A DNA stretch of 46,924 nucleotides from a virus. Its lineage: Duplodnaviria; Heunggongvirae; Uroviricota; Caudoviricetes. The position numbers and the translations under genes were made by a program. Under the pieces are notes generated by a model that did no database searches, was not told the origin of the DNA, and saw nothing but the letters and a program-made list of their open reading frames with translations. The stretch lies in the IMG/VR virus record IMGVR_UViG_2695420343_000002; one strand, 5' to 3'. Below are positions 1 to 46,020 of this stretch, in pieces. Numbering within the stretch: position 1 is the first letter of the stretch; every line of letters begins with the position of its first letter.

Positions 1-431
1 TGTTCTCTTCGATTTGCTCACGCTCAGCTTGGTCAATAACTCCATCAGCAGTGCCTTGCGTAAGTACTGGGAATGCTTGCCAATCCATTCTATTGACTCC
101 ATCAGCCGCTGATAATGTCCCATTGTCAATGTCATCAATGACCACCAGCGGCACAAACACCCATTACTACGACGCTATTGCATCTGTTACATGCCTGTAC
201 CACTGGCATCCTGTAAAACCATGGCCCACTCAAGTGGAAAAATTTGATCCCCACCGCTACGCAGTCTGTTATGCAATTGATCTTTTGCTGGGGTGATATC
301 ATCAGATTTATACAAACCAAGAATTTCTGCTGCTTCCTCATAGCCATGAGGTAAATCAGCAATCGTTCTTCGTATTGCTGCCACCAGCCATGCTGTTGTT
401 TATCAACTTTCCATTCAGGTTCTTTACCCAC
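1..431 (-). pseudogene. CII-like/YdaT-family early regulator, truncated at window start and frame-broken copy of 39568-40152
   Basis: Same DNA as 39715-40152 with several single-base length differences; track ORF 135-431 keeps only the first 12 residues ([12 protein letters not shown]) in the same frame. Confidence 0.45.
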
Positions 432-458
432 GGTTAATTCCTCATTTCTGTGGTGTTT

Positions 459-654
459 TTATGCCGCAGCACTGTTAGTCTTTTGATATAAAGACACGTC
501 AACTTTCAGTTTCCCGTTAGTAATTTTTCTAACTGGTACGCTCGGCCTTCAGGAATAATCTCAGGCCACTCTGAAACAGACGGATGCTTAATACCTAGGC
601 TTCGGCGGTTTTACAAACTCCGCCGAAATAATTAATCACGTCGGATTTCCGCAT
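459..654 (-). pseudogene. Cro-like (YdaS-family HTH) gene, frame-broken copy of 40180-40377
   Basis: No intact ORF here; two 1-bp length differences versus copy B (taatttttct vs taattttttct, cctaggc vs cctagggc). Confidence 0.4.
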
Positions 655-687
655 TTCTGTCTCCCGTTAAATTACGTTAAGCAGAAA

Positions 688-703
688 TGTAGGATATCCA
701 ACA
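688..703. promoter_or_regulatory. Operator-like 16-bp site TGTAGGATATCCAACA (copy of 40411-40426)
   Basis: Near-palindromic site between divergent cro-like and cI genes; same motif recurs downstream of cI. Confidence 0.45.
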
Positions 704-749
704 TACCAATGTCAAGAATCCTACATGGGCATGTGGTAGGATTGCCTAC

Positions 750-1400
750 ATGATGAACATGAGTGATCGTATTCGCCAAAGGCGAAAAGAACTGAACCTG
801 ACACAACAAGCACTGGCTGATTTGACTGGTGTGAACCGTGTCACGGTTACTGGATGGGAAAAGGACGACTACCAACCAAATGGAGCCAACCTTCAAGCCC
901 TAGCCAACGCACTTAAATGCGATCCTCTGTGGCTTGTTAGCGGAAAAGCTCGCCTGAACCAAAGATAAATCTAAAACCTGAAATATTCGCAGTTAAAAAA
1001 GTCCCCCTCATCTCGTGGTTCAGGCGGTTCATGGACAATGACGGAGCCTGGTGTCAGGAAAGAAGATGCTGAAGAGTGGGTTTATACTACCGCCCTTGTA
1101 TCAGAAATGGCATTTGCACTACGGGTCCGTGGTGATTCAATGACCAATCCCCTCGGCTCACCATCGATACCAGAAGGTTCTATCGTTATCGTAGAGCCAG
1201 ATATTATTGATACAGAGTGTATTAACGGAAAAATCGTTGTTGCCCATATCAATGGTGGGCAAGAAGCGACACTCAAAAAATTTGTTGAGGACTGGCCGAA
1301 CAGGTATCTCGTCCCACTAAATCCTAACTATAAAACTATTGAATGCGGTGAGAACTGCAGAATAGTTGGTCTTGTCAAACAAGTAATAATGGATTTTTGA
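750..1400 (+). pseudogene. CI-type prophage repressor (HTH + S24 peptidase), frame-broken copy of 40473-41126
   Basis: Track splits it into 750-968 and 1038-1400; copy B is one 217-aa ORF with the same residues. Confidence 0.55.
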
Positions 1401-1424
1401 CACATCTTCCTCACTATCGCAAAA

Positions 1425-1446
1425 CCGGGGTATCCCCGGTTTTTTT
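1425..1446 (+). terminator. Rho-independent terminator after cI (copy of 41151-41172)
   Basis: Hairpin CCGGGGTATCCCCGG followed by T7 run, 25 bp after the cI stop. Confidence 0.7.
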
Positions 1447-1463
1447 ATGAGCCTATCTTTTTA

Positions 1464-1514
1464 TGTAGGATAACCAACATAAACTCTTGACACTCACATG
1501 TTGGATATCCTACA
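1464..1514. promoter_or_regulatory. Inverted pair of operator-like sites flanking a TTGACA hexamer (copy of 41190-41240)
   Basis: TGTAGGATAACCAACA and TGTTGGATATCCTACA in inverted orientation, 18 bp apart. Confidence 0.45.
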
Positions 1515-1633
1515 TTTGTTTTTAGAGTTGTGGTGAATGCGCAGGCTGATGCGCGAAAGACATTGCAGCTATTGCGGAAAAGAGCTGTTCGGCGGGGCCA
1601 TTAAACGCCCGTATCTGGAGGTTAAAGAACAAA

Positions 1634-1909
1634 ATGAAAGTCCAGATTTTAAACAATAGTGGTGAAGTCGTTTGGTCATACGACATAGCCGCTCCTGTAG
1701 ATCAGAGCGGCGATAGCTGGACCAATGGGAAACATCAGATTATGGCTGGAGTTGTATTCTCTTTACGCCGTGCTTTGGAACAGGCTGAAGTATTTCCATC
1801 AGACCCTGAATGGAAATGGCCTTTTTCTATTTGTCCAAATTCGGAGAGCACATTTCAGAAAATTGGTCAGAAAGTCGCACTCGAAGAGCATCAGCCAACT
1901 GTTTCCTGA
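1634..1909 (+). CDS. Hypothetical protein downstream of cI (copy of 41360-41635)
   Basis: GGAGG 8 nt upstream of ATG; 91-aa ORF; no recognisable motif. Confidence 0.5.
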   Translation: MKVQILNNSGEVVWSYDIAAPVDQSGDSWTNGKHQIMAGVVFSLRRALEQAEVFPSDPEWKWPFSICPNSESTFQKIGQKVALEEHQPTVS

Positions 1910-2072
1910 TTTTTTCAGGTAACTCGTCGGCATCGCAGAAACAACAACGCTCGATCATGTTGAAAGCCGATTCGTAGAACTGTTTCTGCTGAGTGTCGCT
2001 GAGACAGGAAAAGAGCGACGTTACGATGATTTTATTAATTGCATTATCAAGTTCTTTTTCATCAAAAGTCAT
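1827..2072 (-). CDS. Hypothetical protein, convergent with and overlapping the previous ORF (copy of 41553-41798)
   Basis: AAGGA 7 nt upstream of ATG; 81-aa ORF; 83-nt 3' overlap with 1634-1909 leaves one of the two in doubt. Confidence 0.45.
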   Translation of the reverse strand: MTFDEKELDNAINKIIVTSLFSCLSDTQQKQFYESAFNMIERCCFCDADELPEKIRKQLADALRVRLSDQFSEMCSPNLDK

Positions 2073-2506
2073 TTGATTTTCCTTTTATGTATACGGGCTT
2101 AAAAGGATACCACCGAGCCTGAAGTGGTGAAAAGACAGGCACATAACAGCTAAGTATTTTCAACCAGAGAGAATCCTTAGCGTTGTGGTGAATGCGGCTC
2201 AGCGCACGCGGTTAAGGTTGAGGCTGACAGTCGACCTTCTGTGGATACCCACCCGCCTGGTGTGCAACCTTCGCCAGGCACCGGAGGCACCCGGCACCAC
2301 AACTTTATGCTGTGTGTAGTCCTCGCGGTACCAGTTTGTACACTTGCTTCCGGCTGGTACCGCTCTTTTACAAAACAGAGAAGAGCATCACCGGACGACG
2401 GGCTCATAACCCAATCCATCCGGGCGGCTGCCACCGCAGGTGTTCTTCTCTGTTTTGTGGAGAAACCAACCGACCTTGCAGGGTCGATATGATGAGGAGC
2501 AGCAAA

Positions 2507-2868
2507 ATGGCTAGCGAACGCAGTACTGATGTGCAGGCATTTATCGGGAGCTGGACGGCGGCGTATTTGAAACCAAAATCGGCGCAGTTCTCAGTGAAGT
2601 CGCTTCCGGTGTGATGAACACGAAAACCAAAGGGAAGGTCTCACTCAACCTGGAAATCGAACCATTTGATGAGAACCGTGTGAAAATCAAACACAAACTC
2701 TCATATATTCGCCCGACTAACCGCGGGAAAATTTCCGAAGAAGACACCACCGAAACGCCGATGTATGTCAATCGCGGTGGTCGCCTGACTATTCTGCAGG
2801 AAGACCAGGGACAATTACTGACTCTTGCCGGTGAACCTGACGGAAAACTCCGCGCAGCAGGTCATTAA
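2507..2868 (+). pseudogene. YfdP-like early protein, frame-broken copy of 42236-42598
   Basis: Track gives 2312-2614 and 2611-2868 in different frames; copy B has one ORF; difference is atcgggag vs atcggggag. Confidence 0.45.
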
Positions 2869-2933
2869 TATCGTTTTTAATAAACTGATTATTTATCTCA
2901 TCACTGAATATTTTTATATAGTGAGGACTTATT

Positions 2934-3758
2934 ATGTCTCAGAACTTAGACGCAACCGCAATTAATCAAATCCATGCCCTTATTTCTGCTCAGGGTGTTA
3001 ATGAAATTATCAGTAAGATTGGTGCCGATGCTGTGGCATTGCCTGAGAATTTCCGCATTCATGATCTGGAAAAATTTAATTTAAATCGCTTCCGTTTCCG
3101 TGGTGCGCTTTCCACTGCCAGCATCGATGACTTTACCCGTTATTCTAAAGATCTTGCAGATGAAGGCACCCGCTGCTTTATCGATGCTGATAATATGCGT
3201 GCCGTCAGTGTGCTTAACCTGGGTACTATTGATGAACCAGGTCACGCAGATAACACCGCCACACTCAAACTGAAAAAGACAGCACCGTTCTCTGCTCTGT
3301 TGTCTGTTAACGGCGAGCGTAACTCCCAGAAATCACTGGCAGAATGGATTGAAGACTGGGCCGACTACCTTGTGGGCTTTGATGCTAATGGTGACGCCAT
3401 TCAGGCAACAAAAGCGGCTGCGGCAATCCGTAAAATCACGATTGAAGCAAACCAGACCGCTGATTTTGAAGATAATGACTTCAGCGGCAAACGCTCCCTG
3501 ATGGAATCTGTCGAAGCGAAGACCAAAGACATTATGCCAGTGGCATTTGAATTTAAATGCGTTCCGTTTGAAGGTCTGAAAGAACGTCCGTTTAAATTAC
3601 GCCTCAGCATTATCACTGGCGATCGTCCTGTACTGGTTCTGCGCATTATTCAGCTGGAAGCAGTGCAGGAAGATATGGCTAACGAATTTCGTGATCTGCT
3701 TGTTGAGAAATTCAAAGACAGCAAAGTAGAAACCTTTATTGGTACTTTCACCGCCTGA
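2934..3758 (+). CDS. YfdQ-like phage early protein (274 aa)
   Basis: Intact 274-aa ORF; length and position after a YfdP-like gene match the KplE1 yfdPQRS block as I recall it. Confidence 0.75.
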
Positions 3759-3885
3759 TTTCATTACTGCAAATGCCCCTGCGGGGGCATTTATGGAAAC
3801 GTAATTAACTCAATAATCACCGGATGGTGAGGGCTTCCTTTTACCCAAACTCAGCGCGGTGCAGCGCATATACGTGGAGAACAAA

Positions 3886-4422
3886 ATGTCATTTATTAAA
3901 ACTTTTTCCGGGAAGCATTTTTATTATGACAGGATAAATAAAGACGACATCGATATTAACGATATCGCGGTTTCTCTTTCAAATATCTGTCGCTTTGCCG
4001 GTCATCTTTCGCACTTCTACAGCGTCGCCCAACATGCGGTTCTTTGCAGCCAGCTGGTGCCGCAGGAATTTGCTTTTGAAGCGTTAATGCATGATGCAAC
4101 AGAAGCGTATTGCCAGGACATTCCCGCACCACTGAAACGCCTTCTTCCTGACTATAAACAAATGGAAGAAAAAATAGACTCCGTAATCCGTGAGAAATAC
4201 GGATTACCCCCAGTTATGAGTACGCCCGTGAAATATGCCGATCTCATCATGCTGGCAACCGAACGCCGCGATCTCGGGCTTGATGATGGCTCTTTCTGGC
4301 CTGTACTGGAAGGTATCCCGGCAACAGAGATGTTCAACGTGATTCCACTGGCACCGGGCCATGCCTACGGGATGTTTATGGAACGCTTTAACGAGTTATC
4401 GGAGTTACGCAAATGCGCATGA
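3886..4422 (+). CDS. HD-domain phosphohydrolase (YfdR-like)
   Basis: H..H and HD motifs (SVAQHAV, ALMHDATEAY); ATG at 3886 has GGAGA 6 nt upstream; track start 3859 is a GTG. Confidence 0.75.
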   Translation: MSFIKTFSGKHFYYDRINKDDIDINDIAVSLSNICRFAGHLSHFYSVAQHAVLCSQLVPQEFAFEALMHDATEAYCQDIPAPLKRLLPDYKQMEEKIDSVIREKYGLPPVMSTPVKYADLIMLATERRDLGLDDGSFWPVLEGIPATEMFNVIPLAPGHAYGMFMERFNELSELRKCA

Positions 4423-4775
4423 ATGTTTTCGAAATGGAAGGGTTTCTTCGTGGGAGATGTGTACCGCGAGATCTGAAAGTAAATGAAACAGATGCTGAAT
4501 ACCTGGTGCGTAAATTCGATGCGCTTGAAGCTAAATGTGCAGCACAGGAAAACAAAGTAATACCAGTGTCAACTGAACTGCCACCAGCAAATGAAAGTGT
4601 TTTGTTATTCGATGCTAACGGAGAAGGCTGGCTAATTGGCTGGCGTTCTCTCTGGTACACCTGGGGACAAAAAGAAACCGGAGAATGGCAGTGGACATTT
4701 CAGGTCGGGGACCTTGAAAACGTCAATATCACTCACTGGGCAGTAATGCCAAAAGCACCGGAGGCTGGAGCATAA
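4413..4775 (+). CDS. DUF551-like protein (YfdS-like)
   Basis: 120 aa; C-terminal W-rich region ending NITHWAVMPKAPE resembles the DUF551 signature. Confidence 0.65.
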   Translation: MRMNVFEMEGFLRGRCVPRDLKVNETDAEYLVRKFDALEAKCAAQENKVIPVSTELPPANESVLLFDANGEGWLIGWRSLWYTWGQKETGEWQWTFQVGDLENVNITHWAVMPKAPEAGA

Positions 4776-5353
4776 TGACCACTTTTACTGACAAAGAACT
4801 GATTAAAGAAATTAAAGAGCGTATCAGCAGCCTTGACGTGCGAGACGATATTGAGCGCCGTGCTTATGAAATTGCACTGGCATCACTGGGAGCAGAACCT
4901 GTAAGCCAAACTTACAACTTGCCAGAATTAATCGAAGGCATGGAGGTTTCCATTGATGTAAGCACTTGTGATGCGGATTTAGGTAATCGCTATTTCGGTA
5001 CCGTCACCGAGGCGTTAGAACTTGATACTGCCAAGAATGGTTACATCCTCCTGGTTCAGGACGCAGAGCCAAACTTCGATATAAATGGCAACTCTCCGGT
5101 AACTCCGGATGGTTGGGTCATGGTGCCGAAGAAACTAACCGCTGAGAACGGCGCTAAGGGTGTGCTATCCGGTGAATTTTCAGAAACTACGTTTATAAGC
5201 TGCCCGGAATGCTTTGGCGATGATGATTGCGATACCTGCGACGGGAGCGGACGTATTGAAATTAAAGTGCCAGTCACGTGGTCGACCATAAAATCTATCT
5301 GGGATAAAGGTATCGAGTATTTTGCAGCAAAACCATCACAAGAGGTGAAGTGA
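4775..5353 (+). CDS. Hypothetical protein with C-terminal zinc-finger (CPEC...CDTCDGSG)
   Basis: 192-aa ORF; start overlaps previous stop (ATGA); CxxC plus CxxCxGxG motif. Confidence 0.65.
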   Translation: MTTFTDKELIKEIKERISSLDVRDDIERRAYEIALASLGAEPVSQTYNLPELIEGMEVSIDVSTCDADLGNRYFGTVTEALELDTAKNGYILLVQDAEPNFDINGNSPVTPDGWVMVPKKLTAENGAKGVLSGEFSETTFISCPECFGDDDCDTCDGSGRIEIKVPVTWSTIKSIWDKGIEYFAAKPSQEVK

Positions 5354-5925
5354 TGAACAACTTAATGATCGACCTTGAGACGATGGGGAAAAATAAGGAT
5401 GCACCGATCGTTTCCATTGGCGCGGTGTTCTTTACCCCAGAAACCGGTGACATCGGACAAGAATTCTATGCGGTTGTCAGCCTGGACAGTGCTATGAAGC
5501 AAGGAGCTACACCTGACGGCGATACCATCCTGTGGTGGTTGAAACAGAGCCCTGAAGCACGAGCTGCAATCTGTATTGATGATACTTTATCGATCAGCGA
5601 TGCACTCTCTGAATTGAGTCATTTCATTAATCAGCATGCAGACAATATAAAATATTTAAAAGTCTGGGGTAACGGGGCCACCTTCGACAACGTAATTTTA
5701 CGTGGAGCTTACGAGCGAGCAGGACAAATCTGCCCGTGGGCGTACTGGAATGACCACGATGTACGCACGATCGTTACGCTTGGGCGTTCCATCGGATTCG
5801 ACCCCAAAATGGACATGCCTTTCGATGGCGAACGGCACAACGCCCTGGCTGATGCCCGTCATCAGGCAAAATATGTTTCCGCTATCTGGCAGAAATTAAT
5901 TCCTGCCACCAGCACAGAATTATGA
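5350..5925 (+). CDS. DEDDh-type 3'-5' exonuclease
   Basis: MIDLETMG (D-x-E) near the N-terminus and H-x4-D near the C-terminus (HNALADARHQ). Confidence 0.7.
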   Translation: MMNNLMIDLETMGKNKDAPIVSIGAVFFTPETGDIGQEFYAVVSLDSAMKQGATPDGDTILWWLKQSPEARAAICIDDTLSISDALSELSHFINQHADNIKYLKVWGNGATFDNVILRGAYERAGQICPWAYWNDHDVRTIVTLGRSIGFDPKMDMPFDGERHNALADARHQAKYVSAIWQKLIPATSTEL

Positions 5926-5961
5926 TTTTCCCGGGTGCAGCCGGTTTTGATGGAGAAAATT

Positions 5962-6243
5962 ATGAACACCTTGTTTTTACTGATGGCTGAATTCAATACC
6001 CCAAACATTGAACTCTCAGCAGTTAGCCAAAAGTACTTTGGTATGAGTCCAGCCACGGCAGAAGCAAAAGCAAACGCTTGTAAGTTGCCCGTTCCAACAT
6101 ATCGCATCGGCACATCACAAAAAGCAAAACGTTGCATCAATATTCAAGATCTTGCGGAATACATAGACAAAAGGCGAGAAGAAGGACGTATCGAGTGGGA
6201 ACAGGTCAGAACAGTCAAACAGAAGGACAAAGAACATCACTAA
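5962..6243 (+). CDS. Excisionase-like DNA-binding protein (TorI/PrtN-like)
   Basis: Small protein starting MNTLFLLMAEF; last gene before the int junction; GGAGA 7 nt upstream of ATG at 5962. Confidence 0.5.
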   Translation: MNTLFLLMAEFNTPNIELSAVSQKYFGMSPATAEAKANACKLPVPTYRIGTSQKAKRCINIQDLAEYIDKRREEGRIEWEQVRTVKQKDKEHH

Positions 6244-6273
6244 AGAAAAAACCCGCCTGAAGGCGGGTTTTCA
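6243..6273. terminator. Bidirectional rho-independent terminator
   Basis: ACCCGCC-TGAA-GGCGGGT hairpin flanked by an A-run and a T-run, between convergent genes. Confidence 0.7.
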
Positions 6274-6290
6274 AAAAGCACCAGCTATGA

Positions 6291-6464
6291 TCATGCTGCT
6301 TTGCGACGACGAAGCTTACCCTGCTGCTCTTTACCAGAGACAGTAGCGTGAGTGAACGCATTAGGAGCAGCCTTCATCAGAACTTCAACAGCAGCACCCA
6401 TACCTGCGAATGCTTTCATTGTGTCGAACTTAACCTGTGGCTTGGTTGCTTTTTGATCTTTCAT
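6291..6464 (-). CDS. Small basic protein, 57 aa, hypothetical (below track cutoff)
   Basis: Translated by hand: MKDQKATKPQVKFDTMKAFAGMGAAVEVLMKAAPNAFTHATVSGKEQQGKLRRRKAA; GGGAG 8 nt upstream of ATG. Confidence 0.5.
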   Translation of the reverse strand: MKDQKATKPQVKFDTMKAFAGMGAAVEVLMKAAPNAFTHATVSGKEQQGKLRRRKAA

Positions 6465-6535
6465 AGAAAACTCCCGAGACAGTAAAGGCGTCTCTAACCC
6501 TTTCTTTAAAGCTAGCTTGTTTCGCTAACTTATGC

Positions 6536-6556
6536 CAATCGATCATGTCGATTGGT
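6536..6556. promoter_or_regulatory. Palindrome CCAATCGA-N5-TCGATTGG upstream of the small ORF
   Basis: Perfect 8-bp inverted arms, 5-bp spacer, about 70 bp upstream of the 6464 start codon. Confidence 0.4.
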
Positions 6557-6660
6557 GACATCGTTTCTTAGTAGTTTAAGCACAAAACGACTGCCATAGA
6601 TGTACCTTTAAGGTAATCTGGACGGGTATCCTACAATTTGTAGACCCTTCTCGTCTATAC

Positions 6661-7197
6661 CTACTGAGCAAATTTAAGAAAGATATCCTGCAGCTCATCA
6701 ATGACTGCCGACATCACATAACCGCACTGTTCCATGCGGAAACCAAAAGACTCGTAATACTGCACCAGTTCTGGTACTGGCTCTACAATGTGGACAACTT
6801 TACATTCAACAGCTTTACAAAATATAAAAGCACTCATAAGAGTGAGTAAAACCATGCGCCCTTTCAATGGGTGAGATTCATCTTCTCTAGAAAACCTTTC
6901 GATCATATGGATACGAAAGATGTTTTCTTCAACCCCATAAACACAAATTGCTGCTCCTGATGGTATTCCCTGAACCCGACCTTGCTGAACAAGTTTTATG
7001 CAGAACTCATACTTTTCTCTGGAGTTGCCATAGGTACTTAACGCATAGTCCCATTCAAGCTCACCATAGCCACCACACAGAATCTTGTAATCATCATCAC
7101 TGAGCGGACCAACAGCAAGAGGTAAGCCGACATGATCAATAATCAACTGGATATTGTTACGTACTGATTGACCTATCTCGTCCAGGGTAAGCATCAT
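6661..7197 (-). CDS. Putative GNAT-fold N-acetyltransferase (accessory gene)
   Basis: 178-aa ORF; C-terminal YYESFGF resembles the GNAT motif; looks AT-rich by eye; no search run. Confidence 0.5.
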   Translation of the reverse strand: MMLTLDEIGQSVRNNIQLIIDHVGLPLAVGPLSDDDYKILCGGYGELEWDYALSTYGNSREKYEFCIKLVQQGRVQGIPSGAAICVYGVEENIFRIHMIERFSREDESHPLKGRMVLLTLMSAFIFCKAVECKVVHIVEPVPELVQYYESFGFRMEQCGYVMSAVIDELQDIFLKFAQ

Positions 7198-7533
7198 GGC
7201 CTCTCAAGCGGAACACTAAAAGTCGCATTATATCTCATTCTTAAGCCGCGTATGGATTACACCTTGAAATGAAAACGCCGGGTTCCCAATAGGCTCCCAC
7301 AGAGTGTATAACTGCTTGTTTTTCAACAACGGTACATCCTATCAAGCATAGGAGCAATGCTAAACCGAGAATTCCAGTAAACACCAGTTTTTTCAGGCAT
7401 CACGCTGGTTTGATTAATTTTTTGTGTTTCATGATTATCGTGCATTTTTGAACATTTCAGGCTATTTTTCTCGCGTTAGGTTCCCGCACAGGTTCCCACG
7501 TTTTATGGGAACCCGAAATAACGAGGTCGTGTA
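7198..7533. other. Noncoding region upstream of int with GGTTCCC repeats; candidate attP or integrase arm-site region
   Basis: GGTTCCC appears three times in direct orientation plus once inverted (GGGAACC) within 60 bp of the int start. Confidence 0.3.
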
Positions 7534-8631
7534 ATGGCGTACTATAACATAGAGAAACGACTAAAATCCGATGGCACACCACGCTATCGCTGTAATGTGA
7601 TTATCAAAGAAAAAGGTGTTATCACTTACAGGGAAAGCAAAACATTCCCTAAACATGCTCATGCCAAAACATGGGGCACACAGAAAGTGATGGAATTAGA
7701 TCTATATGGCATTCCATCATCAAATGCAGTTGACGGACTTACAGTCCGTGACTTACTACACAAATATTTAAATGACCCAAATGCCGGAGGTAAAGCAGGC
7801 CGTACTAAAAGATATGTGCTGGAACTGCTTATGGATAGTGACATCTCCGCGATCAAACTATCTGAACTGACAGAAAATGACGTAATTGAACATTGCAGGC
7901 TAAGAAACAACGCTGGTGCAGGTCCTGCAACAGTCAGCCACGATGTTAGTTATCTTGGCAGTGTTCTGGATGCGGCCAAACCTGTATACGGAATTAATTA
8001 CACATCAAACCCGGCGAAAAGCGCTCGCCCATATCTACTTAAACTTGGTTTGATTGGTAAATCAAACCGTCGTAATCGTAGACCAGCATCTGATGAACTG
8101 GACATGCTCATTGCAGGCCTTCAACAACGATCTACTCATAAATGCTCAAAAATTCCGTTCGTTGATATCCTCAAATTTTCTGTATGGTCCTGTATGCGAA
8201 TCGGAGAAGTATGCCGGTTACGATGGGAAGATCTCGACCAGGAACAAAAATCTATACTCGTAAGAGACAGGAAAGATCCACGCAAAAAGGAAGGTAACCA
8301 CATGAAAGTAGCCTTGCTTGGGGAAGCCTGGGATATCGTCCAACGACAGCCCCAAAAATCGGAATTCATTTTTCCATATAACAGCACTTCTGTTACTGCG
8401 GGATTTCAGAGAGTAAGAAGCAAATTAGGTATTAAGGATCTGCGATACCATGATTTGCGTAGAGAAGGGGCAAGTCGCTTATTTGAGGCTGGTTTTAGTA
8501 TTGAGGAAGTCGCCCAAGTTACAGGGCATCGTTCATTAAACGTGCTATGGCAGGTATATACCGAACTGTATCCGAAATCTTTACATAATCGTTTTGAAGA
8601 GCTCCAAAGGAGCAGAAATAAGACCTCTTGA
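7534..8631 (+). CDS. int: Tyrosine-type phage integrase
   Basis: 365 aa; RYHDLRREGAS box and GHRS...VLWQVYTELY tyrosine region; ACGAGG upstream of ATG. Confidence 0.9.
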   Translation: MAYYNIEKRLKSDGTPRYRCNVIIKEKGVITYRESKTFPKHAHAKTWGTQKVMELDLYGIPSSNAVDGLTVRDLLHKYLNDPNAGGKAGRTKRYVLELLMDSDISAIKLSELTENDVIEHCRLRNNAGAGPATVSHDVSYLGSVLDAAKPVYGINYTSNPAKSARPYLLKLGLIGKSNRRNRRPASDELDMLIAGLQQRSTHKCSKIPFVDILKFSVWSCMRIGEVCRLRWEDLDQEQKSILVRDRKDPRKKEGNHMKVALLGEAWDIVQRQPQKSEFIFPYNSTSVTAGFQRVRSKLGIKDLRYHDLRREGASRLFEAGFSIEEVAQVTGHRSLNVLWQVYTELYPKSLHNRFEELQRSRNKTS

Positions 8632-8660
8632 CACTGTTTATCCATACAGTTAAAAATAAT

Positions 8661-8679
8661 GCTGTATACAAACACAGTA
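8661..8679. promoter_or_regulatory. LexA (SOS) box
   Basis: gCTGTatacaaacACAGta matches the CTGT-N8-ACAG consensus, 14 bp upstream of the dinI-like start. Confidence 0.7.
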
Positions 8680-8692
8680 TGGAGGGACTTTT

Positions 8693-8941
8693 ATGCGTAT
8701 TGAAATCTGCATAGCCAAAGAAAAAATGACTAAAATGCCAACCGGTGCTGTGGATGCGTTAAAGGAAGAATTAACCCGACGCATCAGTAAGCGTTATGAC
8801 GATGTTGAGGTGTTAGTAAAAGCCACCAGCAATGATGGCCTTTCTGTTACACGCACCGCAGATAAGGATTCTGCAAAAACTTTTGTTCAGGAGACTCTGA
8901 AAGATACCTGGGAATCTGCTGACGAGTGGTTTGTTCACTAA
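8693..8941 (+). CDS. dinI: DinI-family protein
   Basis: 82 aa; [11 protein letters not shown]...[11 protein letters not shown] aligns by eye with E. coli DinI along its length; GGAGGG RBS. Confidence 0.85.
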
Positions 8942-9194
8942 TAAACACGTAAAATCTGTAACGGCTGGAAATCATTCAATACTCGCACTATCGAAAGTTC
9001 ACCAGCCAACCGCAGCGCGTTCTTGCATACGACGTGGCTGCGGTCTCAACTCCGTCCCCCACCAATCATGATTGGGCAGTACCAGTACAGCACTAGTAAA
9101 AACTGGAAATAAGCAGTCTCAGCAAAATACCGGCCAGACGGTGAGAAGACAAAAAAGATACGCAAAGTAGCCGCGGCCCTTAGTGACATGAAAT

Positions 9195-9214
9195 CCCGCT
9201 ATACGGGCTTTTTT
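9195..9214 (+). terminator. Weak terminator-like hairpin plus T-run
   Basis: CCCG-CTATA-CGGG then C TTTTTT; only a 4-bp stem. Confidence 0.3.
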
Positions 9215-9289
9215 GTATCTGCACACGATTGATTATTAGGTCCGTATAGCTAATAGTGGTCTTAACCTACATATAGAATCAGAGACTTT

Positions 9290-9985
9290 ATGAAAAAGGA
9301 AATACTCAAGGCTCTTTGCCCTACATGCGGTGGGTTACGTAACTGCACTGTGCATGGGAAGCTAACCACTAGCTGGGAGGATTCCCAATATCCAGTTTAT
9401 GGGTACCATTACCATCACCTACTCCAATGCAATGGCTGTGATACTGTCTTCTATCACCACAACGAACACTTCAGTGAGCATACTACCCACGAATATCGTG
9501 ATGGTGAATTTGTAGAAACGCCTATAGATATGATCACTACCTATCCTGCCGCTGAAACATTTCAAGCTCCGATATGGTTATCCAAGCTTGAATCAGTTGA
9601 TCGTCAGCTCTTTCAAATATTTAATGAAATGTATTCTTCATATACTTCTGACCATTTCATTCTTTCGTCCATCGGTTTACGGACGATTTTTGATCGAACT
9701 GCTGAACTGTTACAAATTCACCCCGGTTTGCCGCTTGGTGAAAAAGTTGAAAAATTAAAACAAGATGGAGTCATAGGCGACACTGAGGCATGCGTTATAT
9801 CTTCAGTAATTGATGCAGGAAACGCCGCCGCACATCGCAGTTGGAGCCCGAATAAAAGTGAGTTCGAACAAATGCTAGAAGCTATAGAAAGTTTTGTCCA
9901 AAGAACTATCTTGGGCAAAAAATCACTTGAACATATAACCAAACAACTCCCACCTCGGGTTACAAGACCTAAAAATAGTGCATAA
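9290..9985 (+). CDS. Zinc-ribbon plus DUF4145-like domain protein (candidate accessory or defence gene)
   Basis: N-terminal CPTCGG...C..H...CNGC; C-terminal GLRTIFDRTAELL...LGEKVEKLKQDGVI...IDAGNAAAHRS fits my recollection of DUF4145; AT-rich by eye. Confidence 0.55.
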   Translation: MKKEILKALCPTCGGLRNCTVHGKLTTSWEDSQYPVYGYHYHHLLQCNGCDTVFYHHNEHFSEHTTHEYRDGEFVETPIDMITTYPAAETFQAPIWLSKLESVDRQLFQIFNEMYSSYTSDHFILSSIGLRTIFDRTAELLQIHPGLPLGEKVEKLKQDGVIGDTEACVISSVIDAGNAAAHRSWSPNKSEFEQMLEAIESFVQRTILGKKSLEHITKQLPPRVTRPKNSA

Positions 9986-10011
9986 TCCGCGATCATCAAT
10001 GTGGCGTAAGG

Positions 10012-10604
10012 CTATGGTTTACTTGCTACAGGGAATTTTTTATACACCGTTGAAATACCCAGATCATAAATCAGTGCGACTTGCTGCTGATATATTCCCG
10101 ATTCAATCAACCTGCCAGCCTGCCCCCATTGTTCTACTGTCAGCTTTGGCTTTCGCCCACCGTTCCTCCCTTCTTGTCGTGCTGCGGCAAAGCCGCCCTA
10201 GTACGTTCGACAATAAACTCTCGCTCCATTTCAGCCAGGGCACCCATCACATGAAAGAAAAAGCGCCCCATTGGTGTGCTGGTATCAATAGCATCCGTCA
10301 GGCTGCGAAAATTAACGCCACGTTCGCGCAACTCTTCCACCAGCACGACAAGATGCCGCATACTGCGCCCCAGTCGGTCCAGTTTCCAGACCACCAGCGT
10401 GTCACCTGCCGATAATGTCCTGAGCAGCTTTTTCAGTCCTGGTCTGTCGGACTTTGTACCGCTTATCTTGTCTTCAAAAATCAGCTCACATCCTGCACAG
10501 TTCAACGCATTACGTTGTAGATCGGTGTTCTGGTCATTTGTTGATACGCGAACATAGCCAATAAGCATGATTGCTCCTCCTGACAAAAACAGGAACGATG
10601 CCAT
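10012..10604 (-). CDS. Pin/Gin/Hin-family DNA invertase, frame-broken
   Basis: N-terminal MLIGYVRVSTNDQNTDLQRNAL catalytic domain (track 10140-10604); the HTH tail GRNGGRKPKLTVEQW...STVYKKFP is in another frame down to 10012; shift lies in a G-run near 10186-10199. Confidence 0.7.
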
Positions 10605-39571: not shown

Positions 39572-40152
39572 GCGTTAGTTTCTCCACAACCAGAAGCAAT
39601 CGACGCCACGACGCCCGGAGCTGCACACTCGCGGGCGTTACTCTTTTCCGGCGCACAAAAAACACGAAATAACAGTGTTAAATGCTCCTGCCACTTCGCC
39701 ATTACTTGGTAGCTGTTCTCTTCGATTTGCTCACGCTCAGCTTGGTCAATAACTCCATCAGCAGTTGCCTTGCGTAAGTACTGGGAATGCTTGCCAATCC
39801 ATTCTATTGACTCCATCAGCCGCTGATTAATGTCACCATTGTCAATGTCATCAATGACCACCAGCGGCACAAACACCCCATTACTACGACGGGCTATTGC
39901 ATCTGTTACATGCCTGGTACCACTGGCATCCTGTAAAACCATGGCCCACTCAAGTGGAAAAATTTGATCCCCACCGCTACGCAGTCTGTTATGCAATTGA
40001 TCTTTTGCTGGGGTGATATCATCAGATTTATACAAACCAAGAATTTCTGCTGCTTCCTCATAGCCATGAGGTAAATCAGCAATCGTTCTTCGTATTGCTG
40101 CCACCAGCCATGCTGGTTGTTTATCAACTTTCCATTCAGGTTCTTTACCCAC
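39568..40152 (-). CDS. CII-like / YdaT-family early regulatory protein (putative)
   Basis: 194 aa directly downstream of the cro-like gene in the rightward early operon; call is by position and family recollection. Confidence 0.45.
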
Positions 40153-40179
40153 GGTTAATTCCTCATTTCTGTGGTGTTT

Positions 40180-40377
40180 TTATGCCGCAGCACTGTTAGT
40201 CTTTTGATATAAAGACACGTCAACTTTCAGTTTCCCGTTAGTAATTTTTTCTAACTGGTACGCTCGGCCTTCAGGAATAATCTCAGGCCACTCTGAAACA
40301 GACGGATGCTTAATACCTAGGGCTTCGGCGGTTTTACAAACTCCGCCGAAATAATTAATCACGTCGGATTTCCGCAT
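40180..40377 (-). CDS. Cro-like HTH protein (YdaS family)
   Basis: 65 aa; GGVCKTAEALGIKHPSVSEW pattern; divergent from cI across an operator-rich spacer. Confidence 0.75.
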   Translation of the reverse strand: MRKSDVINYFGGVCKTAEALGIKHPSVSEWPEIIPEGRAYQLEKITNGKLKVDVSLYQKTNSAAA

Positions 40378-40404
40378 TTCTGTCTCCCGTTAAATTACGT
40401 TAAG

Positions 40405-40475
40405 CAGAAATGTAGGATATCCAACATACCAATGTCAAGAATCCTACATGGGCATGTGGTAGGATTGCCTACATG
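40405..40475. promoter_or_regulatory. Operator cluster between the cro-like gene and cI
   Basis: TGTAGGATATCCAACA at 40411-40426; inverted AATCCTACA/TGTGGTAGGATT at 40439-40465; GTAGGATTGCCTACA abutting the cI start. Confidence 0.5.
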
Positions 40476-41126
40476 ATGAACATGAGTGATCGTATTCGCC
40501 AAAGGCGAAAAGAACTGAACCTGACACAACAAGCACTGGCTGATTTGACTGGTGTGAACCGTGTCACGGTTACTGGATGGGAAAAGGACGACTACCAACC
40601 AAATGGAGCCAACCTTCAAGCCCTAGCCAACGCACTTAAATGCGATCCTCTGTGGCTTGTTAGCGGAAAAGGCTCGCCTGAACCAAAGATAAATCTAAAA
40701 CCTGAAATATTCGCAGTTAAAAAAGTCCCCCTCATCTCGTGGGTTCAGGCGGGTTCATGGACAATGACGGAGCCTGGTGTCAGGAAAGAAGATGCTGAAG
40801 AGTGGGTTTATACTACCGCCCTTGTATCAGAAATGGCATTTGCACTACGGGTCCGTGGTGATTCAATGACCAATCCCCTCGGCTCACCATCGATACCAGA
40901 AGGTTCTATCGTTATCGTAGAGCCAGATATTATTGATACAGAGTGTATTAACGGAAAAATCGTTGTTGCCCATATCAATGGTGGGCAAGAAGCGACACTC
41001 AAAAAATTTGTTGAGGACTGGCCGAACAGGTATCTCGTCCCACTAAATCCTAACTATAAAACTATTGAATGCGGTGAGAACTGCAGAATAGTTGGTCTTG
41101 TCAAACAAGTAATAATGGATTTTTGA
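40473..41126 (+). CDS. cI: CI-type prophage repressor (HTH_XRE + S24 LexA-like peptidase)
   Basis: 217 aa; LTQQALADLTGVNRVTVTGWE HTH; VRGDSMTNPLG Ser motif and K in LKKF for autocleavage. Confidence 0.9.
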   Translation: MMNMSDRIRQRRKELNLTQQALADLTGVNRVTVTGWEKDDYQPNGANLQALANALKCDPLWLVSGKGSPEPKINLKPEIFAVKKVPLISWVQAGSWTMTEPGVRKEDAEEWVYTTALVSEMAFALRVRGDSMTNPLGSPSIPEGSIVIVEPDIIDTECINGKIVVAHINGGQEATLKKFVEDWPNRYLVPLNPNYKTIECGENCRIVGLVKQVIMDF

Positions 41127-41150
41127 CACATCTTCCTCACTATCGCAAAA

Positions 41151-41172
41151 CCGGGGTATCCCCGGTTTTTTT
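41151..41172 (+). terminator. Rho-independent terminator after cI
   Basis: CCGGGGTATCCCCGG hairpin followed by T7. Confidence 0.75.
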
Positions 41173-41189
41173 ATGAGCCTATCTTTTTA

Positions 41190-41240
41190 TGTAGGATAAC
41201 CAACATAAACTCTTGACACTCACATGTTGGATATCCTACA
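41190..41240. promoter_or_regulatory. Second operator pair downstream of cI, flanking a TTGACA hexamer
   Basis: TGTAGGATAACCAACA at 41190-41205 and TGTTGGATATCCTACA at 41225-41240, inverted relative to each other. Confidence 0.5.
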
Positions 41241-41359
41241 TTTGTTTTTAGAGTTGTGGTGAATGCGCAGGCTGATGCGCGAAAGACATTGCAGCTATTG
41301 CGGAAAAGAGCTGTTCGGCGGGGCCATTAAACGCCCGTATCTGGAGGTTAAAGAACAAA

Positions 41360-41635
41360 ATGAAAGTCCAGATTTTAAACAATAGTGGTGAAGTCGTTTG
41401 GTCATACGACATAGCCGCTCCTGTAGATCAGAGCGGCGATAGCTGGACCAATGGGAAACATCAGATTATGGCTGGAGTTGTATTCTCTTTACGCCGTGCT
41501 TTGGAACAGGCTGAAGTATTTCCATCAGACCCTGAATGGAAATGGCCTTTTTCTATTTGTCCAAATTCGGAGAGCACATTTCAGAAAATTGGTCAGAAAG
41601 TCGCACTCGAAGAGCATCAGCCAACTGTTTCCTGA
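41360..41635 (+). CDS. Hypothetical protein downstream of cI (exclusion-gene position)
   Basis: GGAGG RBS; 91 aa; no motif recognised. Confidence 0.5.
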   Translation: MKVQILNNSGEVVWSYDIAAPVDQSGDSWTNGKHQIMAGVVFSLRRALEQAEVFPSDPEWKWPFSICPNSESTFQKIGQKVALEEHQPTVS

Positions 41636-41798
41636 TTTTTTCAGGTAACTCGTCGGCATCGCAGAAACAACAACGCTCGATCATGTTGAAAGCCGATTCG
41701 TAGAACTGTTTCTGCTGAGTGTCGCTGAGACAGGAAAAGAGCGACGTTACGATGATTTTATTAATTGCATTATCAAGTTCTTTTTCATCAAAAGTCAT
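41553..41798 (-). CDS. Hypothetical protein, convergent with and overlapping the previous ORF
   Basis: AAGGA RBS; 81 aa; overlaps the neighbour by 83 nt. Confidence 0.45.
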   Translation of the reverse strand: MTFDEKELDNAINKIIVTSLFSCLSDTQQKQFYESAFNMIERCCFCDADELPEKIRKQLADALRVRLSDQFSEMCSPNLDK

Positions 41799-42235
41799 TT
41801 GATTTTCCTTTTATGTATACGGGCTTAAAAGGATACCACCGAGCCTGAAGTGGTGAAAAGACAGGCACATAACAGCTAAGTATTTTCAACCAGAGAGAAT
41901 CCTTAGCGTTGTGGTGAATGCGGCTCAGCGCACGCGGGTTAAGGTTGAGGCTGACAGTCGACCTTCTGTGGATACCCACCCGCCTGGTGTGCAACCTTCG
42001 CCAGGCACCGGGAGGCACCCGGCACCACAACTTTATGCTGTGTGTAGTCCTCGCGGTACCAGTTTGTACACTTGCTTCCGGCTGGTACCGCTCTTTTTAC
42101 AAAACAGAGAAGAGCATCACCGGACGACGGGCTCATAACCCAATCCATCCGGGCGGCTGCCACCGCAGGTGTTCTTCTCTGTTTTGTGGAGAAACCAACC
42201 GACCTTGCAGGGTCGATATGATGAGGAGCAGCAAA

Positions 42236-42598
42236 ATGGCTAGCGAACGCAGTACTGATGTGCAGGCATTTATCGGGGAGCTGGACGGCGGCGTATTTGA
42301 AACCAAAATCGGCGCAGTTCTCAGTGAAGTCGCTTCCGGTGTGATGAACACGAAAACCAAAGGGAAGGTCTCACTCAACCTGGAAATCGAACCATTTGAT
42401 GAGAACCGTGTGAAAATCAAACACAAACTCTCATATATTCGCCCGACTAACCGCGGGAAAATTTCCGAAGAAGACACCACCGAAACGCCGATGTATGTCA
42501 ATCGCGGTGGTCGCCTGACTATTCTGCAGGAAGACCAGGGACAATTACTGACTCTTGCCGGTGAACCTGACGGAAAACTCCGCGCAGCAGGTCATTAA
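42236..42598 (+). CDS. YfdP-like early protein (120 aa)
   Basis: GAGGAG 8 nt upstream of ATG at 42236; the longer track ORF from 41918 is a read-through of the leader. Confidence 0.6.
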   Translation: MASERSTDVQAFIGELDGGVFETKIGAVLSEVASGVMNTKTKGKVSLNLEIEPFDENRVKIKHKLSYIRPTNRGKISEEDTTETPMYVNRGGRLTILQEDQGQLLTLAGEPDGKLRAAGH

Positions 42599-42663
42599 TA
42601 TCGTTTTTAATAAACTGATTATTTATCTCATCACTGAATATTTTTATATAGTGAGGACTTATT

Positions 42664-43488
42664 ATGTCTCAGAACTTAGACGCAACCGCAATTAATCAAA
42701 TCCATGCCCTTATTTCTGCTCAGGGTGTTAATGAAATTATCAGTAAGATTGGTGCCGATGCTGTGGCATTGCCTGAGAATTTCCGCATTCATGATCTGGA
42801 AAAATTTAATTTAAATCGCTTCCGTTTCCGTGGTGCGCTTTCCACTGCCAGCATCGATGACTTTACCCGTTATTCTAAAGATCTTGCAGATGAAGGCACC
42901 CGCTGCTTTATCGATGCTGATAATATGCGTGCCGTCAGTGTGCTTAACCTGGGTACTATTGATGAACCAGGTCACGCAGATAACACCGCCACACTCAAAC
43001 TGAAAAAGACAGCACCGTTCTCTGCTCTGTTGTCTGTTAACGGCGAGCGTAACTCCCAGAAATCACTGGCAGAATGGATTGAAGACTGGGCCGACTACCT
43101 TGTGGGCTTTGATGCTAATGGTGACGCCATTCAGGCAACAAAAGCGGCTGCGGCAATCCGTAAAATCACGATTGAAGCAAACCAGACCGCTGATTTTGAA
43201 GATAATGACTTCAGCGGCAAACGCTCCCTGATGGAATCTGTCGAAGCGAAGACCAAAGACATTATGCCAGTGGCATTTGAATTTAAATGCGTTCCGTTTG
43301 AAGGTCTGAAAGAACGTCCGTTTAAATTACGCCTCAGCATTATCACTGGCGATCGTCCTGTACTGGTTCTGCGCATTATTCAGCTGGAAGCAGTGCAGGA
43401 AGATATGGCTAACGAATTTCGTGATCTGCTTGTTGAGAAATTCAAAGACAGCAAAGTAGAAACCTTTATTGGTACTTTCACCGCCTGA
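42664..43488 (+). CDS. YfdQ-like phage early protein (274 aa)
   Basis: Identical translation to 2934-3758. Confidence 0.75.
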
Positions 43489-43615
43489 TTTCATTACTGC
43501 AAATGCCCCTGCGGGGGCATTTATGGAAACGTAATTAACTCAATAATCACCGGATGGTGAGGGCTTCCTTTTACCCAAACTCAGCGCGGTGCAGCGCATA
43601 TACGTGGAGAACAAA

Positions 43616-44152
43616 ATGTCATTTATTAAAACTTTTTCCGGGAAGCATTTTTATTATGACAGGATAAATAAAGACGACATCGATATTAACGATATCGCGG
43701 TTTCTCTTTCAAATATCTGTCGCTTTGCCGGTCATCTTTCGCACTTCTACAGCGTCGCCCAACATGCGGTTCTTTGCAGCCAGCTGGTGCCGCAGGAATT
43801 TGCTTTTGAAGCGTTAATGCATGATGCAACAGAAGCGTATTGCCAGGACATTCCCGCACCACTGAAACGCCTTCTTCCTGACTATAAACAAATGGAAGAA
43901 AAAATAGACTCCGTAATCCGTGAGAAATACGGATTACCCCCAGTTATGAGTACGCCCGTGAAATATGCCGATCTCATCATGCTGGCAACCGAACGCCGCG
44001 ATCTCGGGCTTGATGATGGCTCTTTCTGGCCTGTACTGGAAGGTATCCCGGCAACAGAGATGTTCAACGTGATTCCACTGGCACCGGGCCATGCCTACGG
44101 GATGTTTATGGAACGCTTTAACGAGTTATCGGAGTTACGCAAATGCGCATGA
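43616..44152 (+). CDS. HD-domain phosphohydrolase (YfdR-like)
   Basis: Identical to 3886-4422; H..H and HD motifs. Confidence 0.75.
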   Translation: MSFIKTFSGKHFYYDRINKDDIDINDIAVSLSNICRFAGHLSHFYSVAQHAVLCSQLVPQEFAFEALMHDATEAYCQDIPAPLKRLLPDYKQMEEKIDSVIREKYGLPPVMSTPVKYADLIMLATERRDLGLDDGSFWPVLEGIPATEMFNVIPLAPGHAYGMFMERFNELSELRKCA

Positions 44153-44505
44153 ATGTTTTCGAAATGGAAGGGTTTCTTCGTGGGAGATGTGTACCGCGAG
44201 ATCTGAAAGTAAATGAAACAGATGCTGAATACCTGGTGCGTAAATTCGATGCGCTTGAAGCTAAATGTGCAGCACAGGAAAACAAAGTAATACCAGTGTC
44301 AACTGAACTGCCACCAGCAAATGAAAGTGTTTTGTTATTCGATGCTAACGGAGAAGGCTGGCTAATTGGCTGGCGTTCTCTCTGGTACACCTGGGGACAA
44401 AAAGAAACCGGAGAATGGCAGTGGACATTTCAGGTCGGGGACCTTGAAAACGTCAATATCACTCACTGGGCAGTAATGCCAAAAGCACCGGAGGCTGGAG
44501 CATAA
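44143..44505 (+). CDS. DUF551-like protein (YfdS-like)
   Basis: Identical to 4413-4775. Confidence 0.65.
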   Translation: MRMNVFEMEGFLRGRCVPRDLKVNETDAEYLVRKFDALEAKCAAQENKVIPVSTELPPANESVLLFDANGEGWLIGWRSLWYTWGQKETGEWQWTFQVGDLENVNITHWAVMPKAPEAGA

Positions 44506-45655: not shown

Positions 45656-45691
45656 TTTTCCCGGGTGCAGCCGGTTTTGATGGAGAAAATT

Positions 45692-45973
45692 ATGAACACC
45701 TTGTTTTTACTGATGGCTGAATTCAATACCCCAAACATTGAACTCTCAGCAGTTAGCCAAAAGTACTTTGGTATGAGTCCAGCCACGGCAGAAGCAAAAG
45801 CAAACGCTTGTAAGTTGCCCGTTCCAACATATCGCATCGGCACATCACAAAAAGCAAAACGTTGCATCAATATTCAAGATCTTGCGGAATACATAGACAA
45901 AAGGCGAGAAGAAGGACGTATCGAGTGGGAACAGGTCAGAACAGTCAAACAGAAGGACAAAGAACATCACTAA
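45692..45973 (+). CDS. Excisionase-like DNA-binding protein (TorI/PrtN-like)
   Basis: Identical to 5962-6243. Confidence 0.5.
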   Translation: MNTLFLLMAEFNTPNIELSAVSQKYFGMSPATAEAKANACKLPVPTYRIGTSQKAKRCINIQDLAEYIDKRREEGRIEWEQVRTVKQKDKEHH

Positions 45974-46003
45974 AGAAAAAACCCGCCTGAAGGCGGGTTT
46001 TCA
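45973..46003. terminator. Bidirectional rho-independent terminator
   Basis: Same hairpin as 6243-6273. Confidence 0.7.
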
Positions 46004-46020
46004 AAAAGCACCAGCTATGA

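Follow-up and report, generated by a model that had tools for sequence, protein, structure and literature searches.

A zinc-binding and HEPN (DUF4145) protein in a dinI-anchored cargo slot of an Escherichia coli prophage: a candidate anti-phage ribonuclease

What is the function of the gene that lies between the dinI-like gene and the tail-fiber invertase of the temperate Escherichia coli phage in IMG/VR record IMGVR_UViG_2695420343_000002, and is it tied to the SOS response through its neighbor? This record, a stretch of 46,924 nucleotides that we call the window and to which all positions refer, contains at 9290-9985, on the plus strand, an open reading frame (ORF) for a protein of 231 amino acids (aa). 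A sequence-only reading had proposed that this protein is a single-gene abortive-infection effector, possibly coupled to the SOS response. We have found that the first part of the proposal, although unproven, is the reading that fits best, the same architecture having been validated in RAZR/PD-T7-4 and DS-38, and that the link to SOS is unsupported. By a narrow balance of probability, we propose that 9290-9985 is a single-gene moron encoding a predicted anti-phage (abortive-infection or superinfection-exclusion) ribonuclease similar to RAZR/PD-T7-4.

The 231-aa product is identical to WP_001514810.1, the accession given to it in loci with 100% DNA identity, and its exact sequence occurs on at least 1000 contigs. 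The C-terminal DUF4145 region that had been suspected was recovered by the profile search at residues 115-199 (E 8.8e-10, 39 bits for a cut-off of 23.1), and PHROG 1305 matched as well (E 5.3e-43). The domain that contains it, at residues 105-220 (9602-9949), fits the HEPN superfamily (Pfam clan KNTase_C), as it is a four-helix up-down bundle with a conserved His motif in the helix-3 to helix-4 region. The N-terminal beta domain (residues 1-88, 9290-9553) is the presumed sensor. It had been read as a C4 zinc ribbon and this stood in part: the cysteines of the two CxxC knuckles, C10/C13 and C47/C50, are conserved, but no Pfam zinc-ribbon model matches. An AlphaFold2 model computed with 12 homologs is a confident two-domain structure (mean predicted local distance difference test score, pLDDT, of 84), and residues 1-88 modeled alone (pLDDT 92) contain only long antiparallel strands, with both CxxC pairs at hairpin turns. 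The topology of this model would correspond to a zinc-ribbon arrangement plus an extra hairpin. A Foldseek search of the N-terminal domain against the PDB gave no significant match (best E 0.1, TM score at most 0.42).

The protein belongs to a large family. When 1.84 billion cluster representatives were searched with a profile, 2,708 relatives were retrieved at E <= 1e-3, 289 of them at E <= 1e-30; among the top 150, almost every match covers the full length, at about 230 aa. Residue conservation was scored over these best 150 family representatives (alignment A2). Each of the four cysteines is kept in 140-148 of them (at least 93%), and R131, K152, H182 (codon 9833-9835), and W185 are invariant in all 150. 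R183 is present in 146, and D135, E200, and Y115 are nearly invariant. H182 lies within a strictly conserved AG[SN]AAAHRGWxP motif. By sequence, the invariant H182, R131, K152, and W185 are signs of a working active site. The N-terminal domain is the more variable part, with a mean pairwise identity of 29% compared to 40% for the HEPN domain, and this variability, which has also been reported for the zinc-finger domain of RAZR, is a sign of a sensor. A tblastn search with the protein against 50,697 INPHARED phage records found no homolog, although PHROG 1305 matches it. Ten longer family members bear N-terminal extensions, in which two weak sub-threshold Pfam matches and no confident one were found. 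Overall, extensions of 140-280 residues are present in about a dozen members (P0023, P0066, P0078, P0105, and others), and one family member matches the RT_UG29 and RTasDnaG-like models of PADLOC, both of them for defense-associated reverse transcriptases (DRT). The extended members may be fusions or artefacts of gene calling in metagenomes.

What could such a protein do? Anantharaman et al. placed DUF4145 in the HEPN superfamily, listed fusions to zinc ribbons, and reported that ∼80% of the members keep the R-x-H motif (PMC3710099). A single gene described as 'Zn finger-HEPN', PD-T7-4, was obtained in the functional screen of Vassallo et al. (PMC9519451) and later renamed RAZR by Zhang et al., who described it as an abortive-infection ribonuclease that is non-toxic alone (PMC13017515). 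R146 and H154 of RAZR are essential, the R146A change abolishing defense, and activation occurs when the protein assembles, via its variable zinc-finger domain, around phage proteins that form rings (an Erf-like recombinase or portals) (PMC13017515). A second E. coli protein with a zinc finger and a HEPN domain, DS-38 (WP_001313577.1, 366 aa), was predicted by DefensePredictor and validated, and its authors called its zinc finger distinct from that of RAZR (PMC13092281). We favor abortive infection because the same architecture is found in RAZR and DS-38 and because homologs of the 231-aa gene have AbiTii, Mrr, Gabija-like genes, and a reverse transcriptase as neighbors. With regard to the ribonuclease activity, trigger, oligomeric state, and phenotype of the 231-aa protein, we infer the following course: the protein would be made in the lysogen and held inactive, the variable N-terminal domain would bind a protein of an incoming phage, and the HEPN domains, presumably paired as in other HEPN ribonucleases, would then cut RNA and stop translation.

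Several results weigh against this proposal. The literature search found no experiment on the 231-aa protein or its family, no model of PADLOC 2.0 matches the protein, PHROG 1305 is labeled 'DNA binding protein', and a scan of 9044-9289 called no sigma-70 promoter upstream of the ORF. The relation to RAZR is itself set by Pfam and HHpred coordinates together with negative searches, and not by a direct alignment. By coordinate arithmetic, H154 of RAZR and H182 of the 231-aa protein both fall near Pfam position 70, which puts R146 at about residue 174. At this position, eight residues before H182, the 150 representatives have T (55), V (50), I (36), A (8), or S (1), and Arg is not among the commonest residues at any of the 12 positions before H182. 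Searches with phmmer and with two family profiles of a PDB copy that holds 9Y6U and 9Y9C gave no RAZR match at E <= 10; that the RAZR-Gp77 entries are in this copy was confirmed with SECphi27 Gp77, which matched 9Y6U/9Y9C at 1e-142. The PADLOC hidden Markov model for PD-T7-4 matched neither the 231-aa protein (E <= 1) nor the 150 relatives (E <= 0.01), and neither the zinc-finger chain of RAZR nor an RPB9-type zinc ribbon was among the 50 best Foldseek matches in the PDB. The protein is therefore not a detectable homolog of RAZR, and in the tests that could be made it does not qualify as a member of the RAZR family. Moreover, as Arg is absent at the position matched by coordinates to R146, it is possible that the HEPN domain relies on other residues or that it is no nuclease at all.

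It is conceivable, accordingly, that nuclease activity has been lost and that the protein is a nucleic-acid- or protein-binding regulator or decoy, for example a repressor-like or anti-defense one. The lack of the canonical HEPN Arg at the inferred position across the 150 representatives points in this direction, as do the ∼20% of DUF4145 members without the motif (PMC3710099) and the PHROG 1305 label. However, we found no experimental basis for that label, the neighborhoods of the family are of the defense type, and H182 is invariant in a motif that has been strictly conserved. With R131 and K152 invariant and R183 nearly so, the pattern looks like a remodeled active site rather than like decay, and we consider the loss of activity unlikely. 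The strict conservation of AG[SN]AAAHRGWxP favors, by inference, an active site in which R183, R131, or K152 replaces the Arg.

Is the gene a core gene of the phage or part of its cargo? DNA specific to it extends from about 9223 to 10012 and comprises a 67-bp leader, the 231-aa gene, and a 26-bp gap to the convergent invertase. This segment is present in 34 of 5,426 complete E. coli genomes, in all of them with at least 99.7% identity. When 8600-10000 was used as query, 3,164 genomes (∼58% of the complete E. coli genomes) gave a partial match, mostly to what we call the dinI cassette, that is, the dinI promoter, two LexA boxes, the gene, and about 100-280 bp of 3' flank (8625-9222), and in about 3,100 genomes this cassette is found without the 231-aa gene. 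The survey of related prophages, with slot contents drawn from a sample including L002-L004, L011, L012, L014-L017, and L022-L027, agreed with the earlier claim of a variable cargo slot next to the integrase, as the slot was empty or held other genes. The SOI121 prophage (L004) is 97.8% identical over 81% of 1-9000 and has an empty slot, with the invertase 144 bp after dinI and nothing between them; the place after the dinI cassette is also empty in L016 and L017, and L003, L014, and L015 carry other cargo, which in the last (IR53017, the same phage type) is an acyltransferase.

The dinI cassette is not restricted to this phage, since unrelated prophages that lie at dusA, prfC, and ssrA and beside ybhB have it at their ends. 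The genes that follow it elsewhere, in either orientation, include type III secretion effectors (nleG7/espS, espM2/espW, or espK/espN), ydfK, an ImmA/IrrE gene with a helix-turn-helix gene, an SDH-type protease, and unannotated proteins. In one other prophage it is followed by a type XII retron RT-TIR (PADLOC 2e-187), and in another by DUF4760, a second dinI cassette, and then SLATT with an RT_UG17 DRT (PADLOC 1e-158). Two dinI cassettes flank one cargo gene and precede another in L011, and in L002, beside ybhB, a diguanylate cyclase follows a remnant of the cassette 3' flank that has no dinI. In E. coli S56 (L028), a DUF3644/HEC-08 gene (PADLOC 1e-173) lies directly upstream of the 231-aa gene: here the int-dinI module is replaced, at 1990-3090 of that locus, by this gene (366 aa, mis-annotated as 'hsdR'), a partial integrase, and an HNH gene. 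Two HEPN-type candidates are thus adjacent in S56, the DUF3644/HEC-08 protein having the same length as DS-38, with which it was compared by length alone. Cargo exchange seems to be anchored by the dinI cassette.

The base composition is in line with these data, with a restriction. The 231-aa ORF has 41.5% GC compared to 54.6% for the tail and baseplate genes and 51.2% for the genome, in agreement with the AT-richness that had been claimed, but int (42.6%) and dinI (43.0%) are as AT-rich. Taken together, the presence, absence, or replacement of the gene at the same position and its deviant base composition make it well supported that it is variable cargo in a hotspot that also carries defense systems.

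Homologs with 67-70% identity are found in Citrobacter, Enterobacter, and the host of P0008, at the ends of three different prophage types, where their neighbors are UmuD-like S24 peptidases, DinI, a Y-family polymerase, glycosyltransferases or gtrABC, and AbiTii. The Enterobacter homolog (L010) adjoins gtrABC, and AbiTii is beside the homolog in L020/21. Farther away, a Burkholderia homolog (L018) lies among a Gabija-like pair of AAA_15 and UvrD genes, a phosphoribosyltransferase, and a reverse transcriptase, and one from Rahnella (L019) is accompanied by a paralog and an Mrr nuclease. The protein could instead defend against another mobile element such as conjugative plasmids (compare 'Ishtar', DUF4145/DUF3644) or be a toxin that stabilizes the prophage. 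HEPN (DUF4145 or DUF3644) proteins have been reported to block RP4 conjugation (bioRxiv 10.64898/2026.07.06.735840), and in S56 the 231-aa gene is beside a DUF3644/HEC-08 gene. However, in Ishtar the HEPN domain is N-terminal and the C-terminal domain is of another kind, whereas RAZR, which has the same domain order as the 231-aa protein, is anti-phage; and a toxin would lack a partner antitoxin gene here, the flanks being only the 67-bp leader and the 26-bp gap. We regard these two functions as very unlikely.

We come now to the second part of the question, the relation to SOS. The dinI-like gene (8693-8941, plus strand) encodes 82 aa, and its assignment to the DinI family, proposed earlier, was borne out by Pfam DinI (E 1.1e-19) and by PHROG 189, 'RecA filament binding protein DinI' (E 1.4e-30); the product is below the NCBIfam cut-off for the DinI equivalog (72.8 bits, cut-off 111). 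Its promoter-like site (8628-8657, plus strand; 10/12 in a consensus scan) has a -35 TTGACA at 8628-8633, which overlaps the stop codon of int, an 18-nt spacer, and a -10 AAAAAT at 8652-8657. The near-consensus LexA box noticed in the sequence-only reading, gCTGTatacaaacACAGta, was found at 8661-8679 and has its core, CTGTATACAAACACAG, at 8662-8677 (box 2). This core is a perfect CTGT-N8-ACAG that, with its flanks, scores 16/20 with respect to the consensus, lies between the -10 and the ribosome-binding site, and covers the likely transcription start site. In addition, a further box that had gone unmentioned, CTGTTTATCCATACAG (8634-8649, box 1), is 28 bp upstream, centre to centre; it is also a perfect CTGT-N8-ACAG, scores 15/20 with its flanks, and fills the promoter spacer. 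Scores of 15 and 16 on the 20-nt consensus fall in the range of the recA, sulA, and dinI boxes. In the 46.9-kb window these two are the only perfect CTGT-N8-ACAG sequences, with 0.65 expected by chance, and both fall within 44 bp upstream of dinI. Seven dinI cassettes from six other E. coli loci retain the two boxes: spacer bases vary in box 1, and in one case in box 2, but the CTGT/ACAG arms are never altered. As evidence for function, this conservation is stronger than the chance statistic. The dinI gene seems to be a separate and widespread cassette, repressed by LexA via two predicted operators, that marks the slot.

The region between dinI and the 231-aa ORF is a composite of the conserved, non-coding 3' flank of the cassette (8942-9222, plus strand) and of DNA specific to the cargo (9223-9289, plus strand). 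The dinI cassettes of other prophages begin to align at 8625-8628, right at the -35; homology stops at 9043 in the empty-slot prophage L004 and reaches 9157-9222 in prophages at the prfC site. The flank includes a hairpin at 9009-9043 and a minus-strand relic at 8938-9024 annotated as 'capsid protein'. A piece of ∼113 bp (8932-9044), with this hairpin, also recurs by itself, without annotation, in many E. coli genomes at ∼90% identity, and PGAP sometimes annotates its minus strand as a 'capsid protein' fragment. A small RNA or riboswitch in the 348-nt spacer was considered and rejected, since Rfam gave no match at E <= 1 and the spacer folds no better than shuffled sequences. The weak terminator that had been proposed is not convincing, as the stem near 9195-9216 has four GC pairs, is not called on the plus strand, and has a z score of -0.43 relative to shuffles. 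As for a promoter of the ORF itself, the proposed TTGATT-N16-TAATAG is indeed present at 9229-9256, but its -10 matches at three of six positions, lacks the final T, and is at chance level; a TAGAAT is present at 9274-9279. A promoter conserved upstream of the homologs was sought as well and discarded, because 9223-9289 cannot be aligned with their upstream regions.

These features leave room for an SOS-coupled effector that has no promoter of its own and is expressed by read-through from the LexA-repressed dinI promoter, so that it is made after DNA damage or induction; it would then serve the phage, in host shut-off or RNA turnover at the lytic switch, and not defense. The 231-aa gene is on the same strand as dinI and 348 nt downstream, no intrinsic terminator was called between them on the plus strand, the 9195-9216 hairpin is no better than shuffles, 9044-9289 has no convincing sigma-70 promoter, and homologs are often near SOS genes (S24/UmuD-like, DinI, Y-family polymerase). 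On the other hand, no LexA box is found within 300 bp upstream of the gene in any of the seven loci inspected (the window and the homologs in L005-L010), nor does 9223-9289 contain a LexA box or CTG-N10-CAG. L009 and L010 have no dinI, and in L005-L008 dinI is downstream of the homolog with an S24 gene between them on the opposite strand. Furthermore, the dinI cassette with both boxes occurs in about 3,100 genomes without the 231-aa gene, the cargo after it faces either way, and RAZR is made from its native promoter without DNA damage (PMC13017515). Because the dinI cassette and the 231-aa gene occur independently, their adjacency appears to be positional and is best explained by the hotspot, and we consider coupling by read-through distinctly unlikely. 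The suggested link to SOS through dinI was consequently not upheld, and the anti-phage ribonuclease remains our preferred reading.

The window itself is a circular contig of ∼39.7 kb written with an overlap, since its ends, 1-7194 and 39714-46924, are the same 7.2 kb and the two copies differ by 16 indels and no substitutions. Tandem prophages as the cause of the repeat were ruled out by this pattern of indels without mismatches. The source is probably a long-read assembly, and homopolymer errors might affect ORF calls elsewhere in the window. The phage is a KplE1/SfV-like temperate myovirus of E. coli that integrates at dusA, with yfdQ/yfdR-type early genes, a LexA-family repressor, a Mu-like baseplate, and a tail-fiber invertase; the order is early genes, attP, int, dinI, the 231-aa ORF, the invertase on the minus strand, and the tail fibers. 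The same element is found at dusA in complete E. coli genomes, with the integrase adjoining the 5' end of dusA. In the window, a replacement dusA 5' end is borne by the phage at 7342-7445 (minus strand): 7342-7700 is 99.4% identical to 10743-11101 of L001 (E. coli CFS3292), a region that spans the first 104 nt of the dusA coding sequence beside int. As this 5' end is carried by the phage, the window represents the excised circular form, with the attP crossover near 7342. The tyrosine integrase gene int (7534-8631, plus strand; Pfam Phage_integrase E 8.4e-21) adjoins dusA in every dusA locus examined and is followed by the dinI cassette.

The right border of the slot is the tail-fiber invertase, a Pin/Cin-like serine recombinase at 10012-10604 on the minus strand. 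Its ORF ends early in the window (154 aa, 10140-10604; Pfam Resolvase E 6.9e-49), and, while the annotations of CFS3292 and S56 mark it as frameshifted, the gene is intact in AVS0790 and SX12. It is probably frameshifted in the window too, and the early stop could be either a real inactivation that locks the orientation of the tail fibers or an assembly indel. At the opposite end of the prophage, across attP, an ORF of 178 aa with ∼41% GC (6661-7197, minus strand) matches PHROG 4350, of unknown function, at E 2e-103 and has no Pfam or PADLOC match; possibly this is further cargo. At 6239-6311 there is a strong hairpin (AAAACCCGCCTTCAGGCGGGTTTT) that resembles a bidirectional terminator, and it alone accounts for sub-threshold Rfam matches there to the rnk leader, RNAI, P9, and sroH. 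A record named 'plasmid pSX12-2' (L030, NZ_CP142787.1, 55.6 kb) bears dusA, pspG, and qorA with the prophage end, and the chromosome of that strain has the same cassette; the record probably represents a piece of chromosome that was mis-assembled or duplicated, and not a plasmid.

How does this locus compare with those already described? With KplE1/CPS-53 and SfV it shares the phage type (yfdQ/yfdR homologs and the Mu-like baseplate) and a slot between int and the tail-fiber genes, but this slot encodes a HEPN protein here and serotype conversion, by O-antigen modification genes, there. In KplE1/CPS-53 the order is int-gtr(ABS)-tail fiber, in agreement with the sequence-only reading. The dinI product is like E. 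coli DinI and the prophage DinI-like proteins in its Pfam family, its 82 aa, and a predicted LexA operator at the promoter. Chromosomal dinI has one LexA box; the gene in the window differs from it in its two tandem boxes with perfect arms and in falling under the NCBIfam equivalog cut-off. The dinI cassette could serve as a practical landmark for the cargo of prophage ends, whether for defense, virulence, or serotype conversion.

Among HEPN proteins, BxaP, Ishtar, AbiV, AbiA-HEPN, and HepT have another domain order or other partners, and none has a Cys4 N-terminal domain: in BxaP (PMC10799925) and Ishtar (bioRxiv 2026.07.06.735840) the HEPN domain is N-terminal and not C-terminal as here, and HepT toxins need the MNT antitoxin. 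DS-38 is, like the 231-aa protein, a single E. coli protein with a zinc finger and a HEPN domain, and it is a precedent for the existence of several variants of this combination. The two proteins were set apart by length and accession alone (366 aa, WP_001313577.1, compared to 231 aa), and identity with DS-38 was ruled out on these grounds.

The closest parallel in design is RAZR/PD-T7-4 (RRL46918.1) from E. coli UMB1727. Both are single genes for proteins of similar size (219 aa in RAZR), both have a C-terminal DUF4145-type HEPN domain with a conserved His (H154 in RAZR, H182 here), and in both the N-terminal domain is the more variable part. By HHpred, RAZR has a zinc ribbon at residues 9-59, a TFIIS_C-like ribbon at 14-55, and DUF4145 at 87-175 (PMC13017515), and its zinc site would be similar to the one suggested here by C10/C13 and C47/C50. 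The N-terminal domain of the 231-aa protein is ∼25 residues longer, with the extra beta hairpin. Its family has T, V, I, A, or S at the position that coordinates equate with R146 and its own invariant set of R131, K152, and W185, together with R183 in 146 of 150.

The combination of a zinc-binding sensor with a HEPN domain is already known and validated in RAZR and DS-38, and the conceptual novelty of the sequence-only reading has been overtaken by them. What remains is a large family that is not modeled, follows the same design logic with another sensor domain and a HEPN active site that is apparently non-canonical, and resides in a dinI-anchored prophage hotspot; none of the tested defense-finder models detects it. 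We tentatively suggest, as a possibility that we hold to be less probable than the general reading, that it is a very large clade separate from RAZR (∼2,700 clusters at 50% identity) of single-chain immune ribonucleases, in which the Arg would be replaced by R131, K152, H182-R183, and W185 and a zinc-binding beta-sheet sensor without a structural relative in the PDB would recognize another class of phage trigger, and which would be exchanged in E. coli via the dinI hotspot with its twin LexA boxes. If the protein is active, its apparent lack of the canonical Arg would probe the flexibility of HEPN catalysis, and its sensor domain could reveal a new phage trigger. In that case RAZR, DS-38, and the 231-aa protein would be three sequence-unrelated solutions to a zinc-binding sensor joined to a HEPN nuclease, of which the one described here would be the third.

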